Below are positions 9,328-10,377 of a stretch of DNA of 11,981 nucleotides, one piece after another (the first letter of the stretch is position 1; each line of letters opens with the position of its first letter). Source of the stretch: a virus (taxonomy: Duplodnaviria; Heunggongvirae; Uroviricota; Caudoviricetes); IMG/VR virus record IMGVR_UViG_2606217102_000003, positions 1 through 11,981 of that record; one strand, given 5' to 3'. Both the position numbers and the translations under genes were made by a program. The notes under the pieces were generated by a model that searched no databases, was not told the DNA's origin, and saw only the letters and a list, made by a program, of their open reading frames with translations.

Positions 9328-10377
9328 ATGATTAATACTGTAAAAATATCCAGTTGTGAGTTAATCAACGCTGATTGCCTGGAATTTATCCAGACCTTAC
9401 CGGAAAACTCTGTCGATCTGATAGTCACAGACCCGCCATACTTTAAAGTGAAGCCCGAGGGCTGGGATAACCAGTGGGAGGGCGACGATGATTACCTGAA
9501 ATGGCTGGACCAGTGTCTGGCGCAGTTCTGGCGGGTACTGAAGCCTGCCGGAAGTCTTTACCTGTTCTGTGGTCATCGCCTGGCATCTGACACCGAAATC
9601 ATGATGCGTGAGCGCTTTAATGTGCTGAACCACATTATCTGGGCGAAGCCGTCCGGACGCTGGAACGGGTGCAATAAGGAAAGTCTGCGGGCGTATTTTC
9701 CGGCAACAGAGCGCATTCTGTTTGCAGAACATTATCAGGGACCGTATCGCCCGAAAGATGATGGCTATGTGGAGCAGGGGCGCGAGCTAAAACAGCACGT
9801 CATGGCCCCGCTGATTTCTTACTTTCGTGATGCGCGTAAATCACTGGGAATAACGTCAAAACAGATAGCGGAAGCCACCGGAAAGAAAAACATGGCTTCG
9901 CACTGGTTTGGTACCAGTCAGTGGCAGTTACCGAACGAGGGTGATTACAACAAATTGCAGGCGTTGTTTGCGCGTGTTGCGGCAGAAAAACATCAGCGCG
10001 GGGAACTGGAAAAGCCACACCACCAGCTGGTCAGCACATACAGTGAGCTGAACCGGCAGTATACGGAACTGCTGAGTGAATATAAAAATTTGCGGCGGTA
10101 TTTCGGTGTGACGGCGCAGGTTCCGTACACCGATGTCTGGACGCATAAACCGGTGCAGTACTATCCAGGGAAACATCCGTGCGAAAAACCGGCAGAAATG
10201 CTGCAGCAGATAATCAACGCGAGCAGTCGTCCGGGAGACCTGGTTGCAGATTTTTTTATGGGTTCAGGTTCAACGGTAAAAGCGGCGATGGCACTGGGGC
10301 GTTGTGCGATTGGTGTTGAGCTGGAGACAGGACGTTTTGAACAGACAGTCAGGGAAGTTCAGGATTTAATCGTTTGA
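9328..10377 (+). CDS. DNA methyltransferase, beta-class N6-adenine/N4-cytosine type (349 aa), orphan
   Basis: Catalytic motif IV TDPPY near the N-terminus and AdoMet motif I FFMGSGST near the C-terminus (order IV then I). C-terminus HPCEKPAEMLQQIINASSRPGDLVADFFMGSGST resembles YhdJ-type enzymes. No adjacent endonuclease gene. Confidence 0.85.
   Translation: MINTVKISSCELINADCLEFIQTLPENSVDLIVTDPPYFKVKPEGWDNQWEGDDDYLKWLDQCLAQFWRVLKPAGSLYLFCGHRLASDTEIMMRERFNVLNHIIWAKPSGRWNGCNKESLRAYFPATERILFAEHYQGPYRPKDDGYVEQGRELKQHVMAPLISYFRDARKSLGITSKQIAEATGKKNMASHWFGTSQWQLPNEGDYNKLQALFARVAAEKHQRGELEKPHHQLVSTYSELNRQYTELLSEYKNLRRYFGVTAQVPYTDVWTHKPVQYYPGKHPCEKPAEMLQQIINASSRPGDLVADFFMGSGSTVKAAMALGRCAIGVELETGRFEQTVREVQDLIV

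Follow-up and report, generated by a model that had tools for sequence, protein, structure and literature searches.

A prophage late-operon allele of the adenine methyltransferase M.EcoGII, preceded by a conserved structured leader

The window, the whole 11,981-nucleotide stretch of phage DNA analysed here, encodes an orphan DNA methyltransferase of the beta class, whose catalytic motifs are intact. Judged by its sequence, this is a naturally occurring allele of M.EcoGII, an N6-adenine methyltransferase of E. coli prophages that has been characterised biochemically and acts in any sequence context (PMC5778455). The window methylase is very probably an active, SAM-dependent and sequence-non-specific orthologue of M.EcoGI and M.EcoGII that is made late and shields phage DNA. 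As an enzyme it is already known, and its identification is an ordinary finding. The leader RNA and the small gene upstream of the methylase are the only part of the locus that may be new.

Sequence and predicted structure of the methylase

The methylase ORF starts with ATG, ends with TGA and encodes 349 residues (Table 1). The TDPPY sequence (residues 34–38; DPPY, 35–38) and the FFMGSGST sequence (residues 309–316; FMGSG, 310–314) are found near the N- and C-termini, respectively, as an earlier note on this DNA had described. Motif IV (DPPY) is N-terminal and motif I (FxGxG) is C-terminal, with the recognition region located between them. The earlier note had separated the two sequences by about 250 residues; the long spacing stands, but the count is 270. 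The distance from DPPY to motif I is 275 residues, compared with 182 in YhdJ of E. coli K-12 (DPPY at residue 40 and motif I at about 222), whose length of 294 residues agrees with the note. Alignment to the Pfam family PF01555 (N6_N4_Mtase; 152.7 bits, E 1.9e-44, cut-off 26.7), the comparison proposed for delimiting the insertion, covers residues 29–340 and profile positions 1–219 of 221 and thus places ∼93 extra residues within the domain. In this alignment, the catalytic motifs DPPY and FMGSG show none of the degeneration that the note had allowed for.

The AlphaFold2 model of the window methylase contains a confidently predicted Rossmann core (pLDDT 80–95), two loops of low confidence (residues 106–127 and 260–286; pLDDT < 50) and a moderate overall mean pLDDT of 73. 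The insertion is predicted to form five helices (residues 147–173, 177–184, 190–194, 204–223 and 234–255; pLDDT ∼70–87), in agreement with the domain description in PMC11551740. In the M.EcoGII clade, the insertion consists of a helical domain containing a helix-turn-helix (residues ∼160–237) and a charged, partly helical linker (PMC11551740). Residues 135–259 of the window methylase carry a net charge of +5, and the core segments are negative.

A Foldseek search with the model returned CcrM (E 2.5e-16) and M.BceJIV (E 6e-15), followed by M.RsrI and M.MboIIA, and sequence searches picked the same chains. The matches to these solved structures run through the Rossmann core only. M.BceJIV residues 3–109 and 183–235 align with residues 8–114 and 281–333 at the two ends of the window methylase, and M.RsrI aligns in the same manner. 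All four enzymes are site-specific, and none contains the central helical insertion. YhdJ, a site-specific orphan beta-class enzyme that recognises ATGCAT, is 32% identical to the window methylase over the N-terminal 96 residues and 39% identical over the C-terminal 79 residues. The curated equivalog models rule out orthology to YhdJ (NCBIfam NF008572; 110 bits, cut-off 292) and to CcrM (NF050803; 72.3 bits, cut-off 830).

The description of the enzyme as an orphan agrees with the locus. PADLOC detected no restriction endonuclease or other defence partner among ten window ORFs besides the methylase. The methylase is adjoined by a 65-residue winged-helix-like ORF and by tRNA genes, and does not form a type II restriction-modification pair.

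Relationship to the M.EcoGII clade

The window methylase and M.EcoGII (EGT69837.1), which together with M.EcoGI comes from E. coli O104:H4 C227-11 (PMC5778455), are colinear proteins of 349 residues, and 316 of the 350 aligned positions are identical (∼90–91%). The M.EcoGII sequence was taken from a machine-read supplementary table of PMC11551740, and the identity is therefore approximate, about 91%. The errors visible in the machine-read sequence are HH for HI, a dropped residue near position 273 and RRR for RR, and the only two gaps in the alignment both fall at such evident errors of the table. M.EcoGI and M.EcoGII also share with the window methylase the DPPY-to-FxGxG order, the central helical domain, a location in a lambdoid prophage and the lack of a restriction partner. 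The window methylase differs from M.EcoGII by ∼30 substitutions, which are concentrated in the central domain and the linker, and its gene resides in a different prophage backbone (RacR-type immunity and DUF1133-type Q). A 349-residue member of the neighbouring 90% cluster is ∼95% identical to M.EcoGII; it is possibly M.EcoGI-like and is not M.EcoGII itself.

The reconstructed ancestors of the clade, Anc291 and SUPREM (Anc284), have the same domain plan (PMC11551740). The window methylase is 85.3% identical to Anc291 and 71.5% identical to SUPREM, and the corresponding values for M.EcoGII are slightly lower (83.5% and 70.3%). Among 114 natural homologues, 171 positions are conserved to 97% or more, and the window methylase retains them all; it departs from the 90% consensus of the homologues at only three positions, none of them in motifs. 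Residues 116–140, the published dimer interface, are identical, and residues 97–110 contain a single change, S98N, which is the Anc291 state. Identity to the homologues is lowest at residues 135–159 and 238–259 in the central domain.

The gene itself is not novel. RefSeq already lists the identical protein (WP_032202034.1), and 171 complete E. coli genome records contain copies of 99% identity or more. ETEC H10407 and O26:H11 11368 have the allele at 99.7–99.8% identity. As an allele of a characterised enzyme, the gene matters little as a finding in itself. M.EcoGII is a commercial product with wide use in chromatin and protein–DNA footprinting. The RefSeq entry carries the generic automatic name 'site-specific DNA-methyltransferase', a label that is attached to thousands of entries and is misleading for the M.EcoGII clade.

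Substrate of the methylase

M.EcoGI and M.EcoGII methylate up to 99% of adenines, and 12 restriction enzymes were blocked (PMC5778455). SMRT sequencing after expression, which the earlier note expected to yield a motif, was performed for both enzymes and yielded none (PMC5778455). Anc291 and SUPREM are also non-site-specific in experiments (PMC11551740). By homology, the window allele would methylate adenines without sequence specificity. A bias or an altered substrate preference relative to M.EcoGII is conceivable, because ∼9% of the residues differ, many of them in the central domain.

RNA or single-stranded DNA could instead be the main natural substrate, for example late transcripts, the enzyme's own leader or intermediates of replication or packaging, and the enzyme would then be a regulator rather than an anti-restriction device. 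In vitro, M.EcoGII methylates single-stranded DNA nearly as efficiently as double-stranded DNA and also accepts DNA:RNA hybrids and RNA. The highly conserved structured leader on the gene and the co-transcribed tRNAs point in the same direction. However, V0 of M.EcoGII is ∼100-fold lower on RNA than on DNA (0.12 versus 11.12; PMC11551740, Table S3). The window allele, like M.EcoGII, has Q179, which accompanies low RNA activity, and not the E179 of SUPREM, whose RNA activity is 12-fold higher (PMC11551740). The late lytic placement of the gene also suits DNA modification before packaging, and a role centred on RNA or single-stranded DNA is improbable.

The earlier note interpreted the insertion as an enlarged target-recognition region, such that a sequence-specific orphan enzyme would read a new and possibly long motif. 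The central region is indeed ∼93 residues longer than in YhdJ, M.BceJIV and M.RsrI, its module of the helix-turn-helix type has a fold commonly used to read bases, and the database name points the same way. In addition, M.PflMI (CCANNNNNTGG), the most distant characterised relative and the nearest site-specific one, has the same beta-class core and, by prediction, a similar recognition domain (PMC11551740). The window methylase, however, lies within the range of four non-specific enzymes (M.EcoGI, M.EcoGII, Anc291 and SUPREM). M.PflMI has only ∼27% identity to M.EcoGII and no charged interdomain linker, whereas the window methylase contains the linker region, and the database name is assigned automatically. 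Sequence-specific recognition is thus very unlikely, and the homology gives no support to the notion that the enlarged region implies a larger or new motif.

In the preferred reading, a non-specific enzyme modelled on its characterised orthologues, the window methylase would act as a dimer, with any adenine flipped into the DPPY pocket for methylation. In the insertion, the four-helix bundle of helix-turn-helix type and the basic linker would grip the nucleic-acid backbone and leave the bases unread.

Organization of the late operon

The window ORFs are ordinary lambdoid prophage genes. The locus is arranged in the order Q-like antiterminator, tR'-like terminator, small ORF, second terminator, methylase, tRNAs and holin (Table 1), and the same order is kept in Klebsiella, Salmonella and Mixta prophages that have three different Q families.

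Table 1. Features of the methylase locus, in window coordinates
Feature	Position	Strand	Evidence
Q-like late-gene antiterminator (DUF1133 family)	8194..8748	+	Pfam DUF1133, 342 bits
Putative pR'-like late promoter (TTGATT, 17-nt spacer, TTCAAT)	8745..8773	+	Read from the sequence
tR'-like intrinsic terminator (AACCCGC / GCGGGUU stem, then U7 run)	8829..8857	+	RNA fold
Conserved 65-residue winged-helix-like ORF	8980..9177	+	PHROG 331, E 1.4e-37
Second terminator-like hairpin and T-run, directly after the small ORF	9164..9191	+	Terminator scan
Conserved structured leader, ∼140 nt	9186..9327	+	Alignments, RNAalifold, covariance model
M.EcoGI/M.EcoGII-type beta-class N6-adenine methyltransferase, 349 residues	9328..10377	+	PF01555 match, ∼91% identity to M.EcoGII
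tRNA with CAT anticodon (Met by ARAGORN; the identical gene is tRNA-Ile in the B7A annotation)	10427..10502	+	
Degenerate copy of the middle tRNA-Arg of a three-tRNA cluster	10510..10586	+	Alignment to B7A
tRNA-Arg (TCT anticodon)	10600..10676	+	ARAGORN, Rfam
Terminator-like hairpin closing the methylase/tRNA module	10690..10719	+	Eight-pair stem with 6 G-C, then TTTTT
Holin, start of the lysis cassette	11484..11906	+	Pfam Phage_holin_8, 82 bits; B7A annotation

The Q-like product also matches Phage_antitermQ (28.3 bits; cut-off 26) and PHROG 753, 'anti-termination protein Q-like' (E 8.4e-78). Strain B7A retains the putative pR'-like block; in that strain, two inserted genes separate it from Q. 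A consensus promoter scan of positions 7800–11981 called no promoter on the + strand, the pR'-like block included, and detected no sigma-70-like site on this strand from tR' to the methylase. The interval between Q and the methylase contains two terminators and no + strand promoter-like site in the scan.

The region around the tR'-like hairpin (positions 8775–8870) folds at −38.8 kcal/mol with a z score of −5.76. The hairpin is conserved in phage 1720a-02 and Klebsiella despite divergent upstream sequence, and a rho-independent terminator is annotated at the equivalent position in SfV. The terminator scan missed this hairpin, perhaps because the folded stem runs into the flanking A- and U-runs. 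The short RNA from pR' to tR' was not assigned to isrK, to which its similarity is weak (21.6 bits; gathering score 50). Other loci have a hairpin and T-run at the same place as the second terminator, with different stem sequences.

Downstream of the methylase, the middle tRNA was detected by neither ARAGORN nor Rfam. Compared with the intact tRNA-Arg of B7A, it contains many substitutions, including some in the 3' half of the acceptor stem. In SfV, a terminator is annotated in the interval from the methylase homologue to the holin. The holin opens the lysis cassette and thereby marks the late operon. These features support placing the methylase among the early genes within a lambdoid prophage late operon.

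The gene could be a decaying, non-functional remnant within a cryptic prophage, given that orthologues produce no methylation signal in their native strains, that the neighbouring middle tRNA is degenerate and that truncated versions occur elsewhere (for example in phiSTEC1575-Stx2k and among partial cluster members), but this is scarcely credible for a full-length ORF that has both catalytic motifs and every near-invariant family position and recurs almost unchanged in the genome records noted above, particularly as the prophage region of the closest genome retains intact Q, holin, endolysin and terminase genes and the terminators account for silence in lysogens.

Proposed function in the phage cycle

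M.EcoGI and M.EcoGII are silent in the lysogen and toxic on constitutive expression (PMC5778455), and in the methylomes of O111 and ST131, homologues with ∼92–99% similarity are likewise silent. From the anatomy of the locus and the biology of lambda and Stx phages, we infer that transcription in the lysogen would halt at the tR'-like and following terminators, which would keep the toxic enzyme silent. After induction, Q-modified RNA polymerase would read past the terminators, and the enzyme would be made late. It could then heavily methylate replicating phage DNA ahead of packaging, which would protect the progeny DNA from the numerous restriction systems inhibited by m6A. The conserved order of Q, terminator, small ORF, terminator, leader, methylase and lysis genes would explain the carriage of a host-toxic enzyme.

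Two functional proposals of the earlier note are in keeping with this scheme. Q-dependent late expression fits the position of the gene after the Q-like antiterminator and terminators and before the lysis genes. The anti-restriction role, which the locus anatomy also supports, is the function proposed for the characterised orthologue (PMC5778455), and both properties are probable for the window methylase. A host epigenetic role, the note's alternative, is unlikely, given the silence of the orthologues in lysogens and their toxicity upon expression. The literature searched holds no report of methylated virion DNA or of a restriction phenotype for the M.EcoGII family in native phage.

The small upstream ORF and the structured leader

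The genes of the M.EcoGII family may carry an undescribed cis-regulatory module, composed of the 65-residue protein, a terminator and the leader. Tentatively, this module could hold the toxic non-specific methylase off until the late lytic cycle, as a post-transcriptional gate similar to that of phage Mu com/mom or as a leader that is processed by RNase III or senses a ligand or protein. In phage Mu, a toxic DNA-modification gene lies at the end of the late operon, and a small protein encoded upstream binds a stem-loop in the leader and unlocks translation. By analogy, the two loci share a small conserved ORF, a structured leader directly adjoining the start codon and a toxic late DNA-modification gene. 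They differ in that there is no sequence similarity between them and that the small protein of the window is winged-helix-like and not a zinc finger. If the leader and the small protein do form a translational gate, they would constitute a new family of regulatory RNA in prophages that are very common in enterobacteria, Shiga-toxin phages among them, and would provide a useful laboratory part for controlling M.EcoGII-type enzymes.

The 65-residue ORF always precedes the methylase. Its conservation extends from Escherichia to Xenorhabdus and Photorhabdus and includes an invariant core of RCQL.LTQ..AGL. It shows weak, sub-threshold matches to DprA_WH, TrmB and MarR, and a profile search of the PDB returned nothing significant. 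A single-sequence AlphaFold2 prediction contains three helices, but the model is poor (pLDDT 53).

The leader is always located downstream of this ORF and consists of a long hairpin, P1 (∼9198–9244), and a multi-stem domain (∼9251–9326). The closing stem of the multi-stem domain stops 1 nt short of the methylase AUG, and no Shine-Dalgarno sequence is evident before the start codon. The leader DNA is more conserved than the coding DNA. A covariance model of the leader (R1) identified a single + strand copy right before the ATG in 54 loci, with scores of 58–174 bits. Double changes are observed at 11 pairs, mostly in P1, compared with 2.6 ± 1.3 in shuffled alignments (0 of 500), and helices 3–6 are highly conserved. 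A search of Rfam 15 gave no leader match at gathering scores or at E values up to 10, apart from a chance overlap with SNORD25. The leader is unannotated in RefSeq and phage records, including more than 2,700 E. coli genomes, and a literature search on it returned nothing relevant.

Other interpretations of the conserved leader were also considered. A coding sequence is ruled out by 1-nt indels among homologues. An alternative 'switch' helix, in which the 3' strand of helix 1 pairs with CACAAGC, was rejected, since it contains two central mismatches in 49–51 of the 54 sequences. A DNA palindrome or operator is unlikely, as the conserved G.U pairs are strand-specific and the reverse-strand model scores at most 20.5 bits.

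Identification of the methyltransferase

The methylase ORF encodes a protein with a TDPPY motif at residues 34–38 and an FFMGSGST motif at residues 309–316, and the coordinates and both motifs reported in an earlier note made by eye are exact. The protein is a member of the PF01555 family (N6_N4_Mtase; 152.7 bits, E = 1.9e-44 in a Pfam profile search). Because residues 29–340 span profile positions 1–219 of 221, ~93 residues inside the domain are unaccounted for by the profile. E. coli K-12 YhdJ has 294 residues, as the earlier note stated, with DPPY at residue 40 and motif I at approximately residue 222 when placed from the BLASTP alignment, which gives a motif spacing of 182 compared with 275 in the window protein. 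The longer region between motifs IV and I claimed in the note is thereby confirmed. The BLASTP alignment covers only the two ends of the methylase (32% identity over residues 12–106 and 39% over residues 269–344). Likewise, the solved compact enzymes M.BceJIV and M.RsrI match residues 8–114 (or 15–140) and ~281–333, with nothing between. Assignment as an equivalog of YhdJ (110 bits; curated cut-off 292) or CcrM (72 bits; curated cut-off 830) was rejected. A defence-system search (PADLOC) of ten window ORFs did not pair the methylase with a restriction partner, in keeping with the orphan status noted earlier.

The methylase gene is already known and is ordinary. The exact protein is RefSeq WP_032202034.1. 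The gene is carried and annotated as a DNA methylase by 38 phage records at 82–89% DNA identity (megablast), including phiP27, many Stx2-converting phages and phage 1720a-02, and it occurs in 1,940 of 5,426 complete E. coli genomes. It is at least 99% identical in 171 of the matching E. coli records, among them ETEC H10407 and O26:H11 11368.

M.EcoGII from E. coli O104:H4 is a prophage-borne 349-residue beta-class enzyme that is identical to M.EcoGI at 333 of 349 residues, and phage 1720a-02 encodes "a very similar MTase" (Murray et al., PMC5778455). M.EcoGII methylates adenine in any sequence context, with as much as 99% of dA modified in vitro, and also accepts ssDNA, DNA:RNA hybrids and RNA. 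The enzyme stays silent in lysogens, and its constitutive expression sickens cells (PMC5778455). Homologues with ~92–99% similarity have been labelled "nonspecific, M.EcoGI/GII-like" by other groups and are silent in their native strains. Alignment with M.EcoGII, as tabulated by Ochiai et al. in their supplement (PMC11551740) and read by machine, gives 316 identities in 350 positions over the full length of the window protein, and the sole gaps fall at evident reading errors. The family alignment gives the window protein 90.8% identity to M.EcoGII and 85.3% and 71.5% to the reconstructed ancestors Anc291 and SUPREM; the corresponding values for M.EcoGII against the two ancestors are 83.5% and 70.3%. 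M.EcoGII, Anc291 and SUPREM are experimentally non-site-specific (PMC5778455, PMC11551740), and the nearest site-specific relative, M.PflMI, is just ~27% identical to M.EcoGII (PMC11551740). Given these identities and the distance of M.PflMI, the window protein lies within the range spanned by non-specific enzymes. On every testable feature, it belongs to the M.EcoGI/GII clade.

Features of the window discussed in the text
Feature	Position	Strand	Remarks
ParE/RelE-type toxin and ParD antitoxin	5801–6426	−	early-region cargo; named from the near-identical B7A annotation
Q-like antiterminator gene	8194–8748		DUF1133, 342 bits; Phage_antitermQ, 28.3 bits (cut-off 26); PHROG "anti-termination protein Q-like", E = 8e-78
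pR'-like candidate promoter	8745–8773		TTGATT-17-TTCAAT, right after the Q stop codon; read by eye
Putative short structured RNA	8775–8857	+	~80 nt; fold z −5.8
tR'-like hairpin with U7	8829–8857		strong; fold z −5.76
Small ORF	8980–9177	+	65 aa; PHROG 331; upstream of the methylase
Second hairpin with T-run	9164–9191		after the small ORF
Leader	9186–9327	+	~140 nt; directly 5' of the methylase ATG
Hairpin P1 of the leader	~9198–9244		long hairpin
Methylase ORF	9328–10377	+	ATG to TGA; 349 aa
Sigma-70-like site	10058–10086	−	TTTATA-17-TATACT, 9/12 matches; within the methylase gene
Degenerate middle tRNA	10510–10586	+
Third hairpin with T-run	10690–10719		after the tRNAs
TerB-like "tellurite resistance" moron and 50-aa ORF	10852–11426	+	TerB-like gene in PHROG 632, E = 2.8e-64; between the tRNAs and the holin, within the late transcript

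Central insertion and predicted function

In the M.EcoGII model, a Rossmann core (residues 1–134 and 260–349) is combined with a four-helix-bundle, HTH-containing recognition domain (residues 160–237) and a long linker, charged and helical in part, which is missing in M.PflMI, and this large basic surface has been proposed to bind nucleic acid without reading bases (Ochiai et al., PMC11551740). The AF2 model of the window protein (mean pLDDT 73, core confident) contains predicted helices at residues 147–173, 177–184, 190–194, 204–223 and 234–255, in agreement with this domain description. A Foldseek search with the model retrieves methyltransferase cores only (CcrM, M.BceJIV, M.RsrI and M.MboIIA). 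Residues 135–259 carry a net charge of +5, and the core segments are net negative. The published dimer-interface residues are identical at 116–140 and differ by S98N alone at 97–110.

The window protein is very probably a late-expressed, non-specific N6-adenine methyltransferase that would hyper-methylate phage DNA ahead of packaging, allowing the DNA to evade m6A-sensitive restriction. The family, motifs, identity to a characterised enzyme, domain plan, orphan status and late-operon position are observed, and the allele is predicted to be active. The earlier note is sound in its observation of the ORF, motifs and spacing, and its interpretation is partly supported. RNA or ssDNA as the real substrate is improbable; M.EcoGII does accept both, and the window protein retains Q179, the M.EcoGII state, whereas SUPREM contains E179, which raises RNA activity. 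Still less probable is site-specific methylation at a new motif. The enlarged target-recognition region from which the note argued stands as anatomy and not as a sign of a longer motif, since the clade is non-specific; in the M.EcoGII family, the enlargement accompanies loss of specificity. A dead remnant is the least probable: the window protein keeps every one of the 171 positions whose conservation among 114 natural homologues reaches 97%, and it departs from the 90% consensus at just three non-motif positions (T89, Q150 and Y278).

Late-region organization

The window lambdoid prophage encodes a RacR-type repressor, YdaS/YdaT-like proteins, replication proteins, DUF968, RusA and the Q-like antiterminator, and the methylase is followed by tRNA genes, the TerB-like gene and a holin. 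The order Q, (terminator), small ORF, methylase and holin is shared by Klebsiella, Mixta and Salmonella prophages and by phages SfV and mEp460, and the Q genes of the elements with this order belong to three families that are unrelated to one another (PF06530, DUF1133 and PF06323). Phage 1720a-02 keeps tR' and everything downstream; its Q and pre-terminator sequence differ. In the closest genome, E. coli B7A, the Q-like gene is separated from the promoter/terminator block by an insertion of two genes for hypothetical proteins of 397 and 177 aa (positions 14335–16058 of the locus), and the block is still attached to the small ORF and methylase.

A promoter scanner made no call at the pR'-like candidate, and a consensus scan of the + strand between tR' and the methylase found no sigma-70-like site. 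In lambda and Stx phages, Q-modified polymerase that starts at pR' passes tR' and downstream terminators. By this analogy, and judging from the anatomy of the window, the methylase should be transcribed in a Q-dependent manner, late after induction only. The sole sigma-70-like consensus site in 7800–11981, on the minus strand, is probably meaningless because one site was found and 3.3 were expected by chance. The pR'-like site and tR' would together yield the short structured RNA, to which isrK, an sRNA family of Salmonella prophages, gives only a weak match (21.6 bits; gathering score 50).

Small ORF and leader RNA

Conservation of the small ORF extends as far as Xenorhabdus and Photorhabdus, and its core, RCQL.LTQ..AGL, is invariant. 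Its product shows weak winged-helix similarity (DprA_WH, TrmB and MarR) and could be a regulator or a methylase partner; a single-sequence structure model was too poor for use. A spacer separates the small ORF from the methylase start; it measures 150 nt in the window and Klebsiella loci, 147–151 nt in most other Enterobacteriaceae loci and ~80–110 nt in Xenorhabdus and Photorhabdus.

Across Escherichia, Klebsiella, Salmonella, Mixta, Yersinia and Serratia, the leader in this spacer is better conserved than the coding DNA on either side, and 1-nt indels among homologues show it to be non-coding. In the fold defined by RNAalifold and a covariance model, it forms hairpin P1 and a multi-stem domain. 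The closing stem (GGUC/GAUC) ends 1 nt before the AUG, ahead of which no Shine-Dalgarno sequence is visible. In 54 loci, which range from Escherichia to Yersinia, Serratia and Chania, the covariance model places exactly one + strand copy immediately 5' of the ATG (58–174 bits; reverse strand ≤20.5 bits). In the alignment, which is fitted to the structure and hence biased towards pairing, 96.8% of cells pair. Double-sided changes are found in 11 pairs, compared with 2.6 ± 1.3 in shuffles (0/500) and 3–6 in slid controls. They lie mostly in P1, with covariation at 8 of its 10 pairs; covariation is neutral on the other helices because their sequence is almost invariant. Conserved G·U pairs argue for a + strand RNA. 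No Rfam 15 family matches the leader, and none of the 2,709 E. coli genomes and 56 phage records in which it occurs carries an annotation for it.

The leader and small ORF may tentatively be regarded as a control module of the methylase, and a possibly novel one. Their arrangement with the methylase recalls Mu com/mom, a likeness of layout. In phage phiSTEC1575-Stx2k (locus positions 2501–3340), a 237-aa ORF annotated as "helix-turn-helix domain-containing protein" occupies the methylase site, with the small ORF upstream and tRNAs and stx2 downstream, and is read as a putative N-terminally truncated methylase. The leader upstream of this ORF is reduced to its first half (query positions 3–65, the P1 region).

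The tRNA cluster usually comprises Ile-CAT, Arg-TCG and Arg-TCT. In the window, the middle tRNA is degenerate, with many substitutions relative to B7A, acceptor stem included, and receives no call from ARAGORN or Rfam; the tRNA on each side of it matches its B7A counterpart at 100% identity. The 50-aa ORF near the TerB-like gene is DUF3927 in the B7A annotation.
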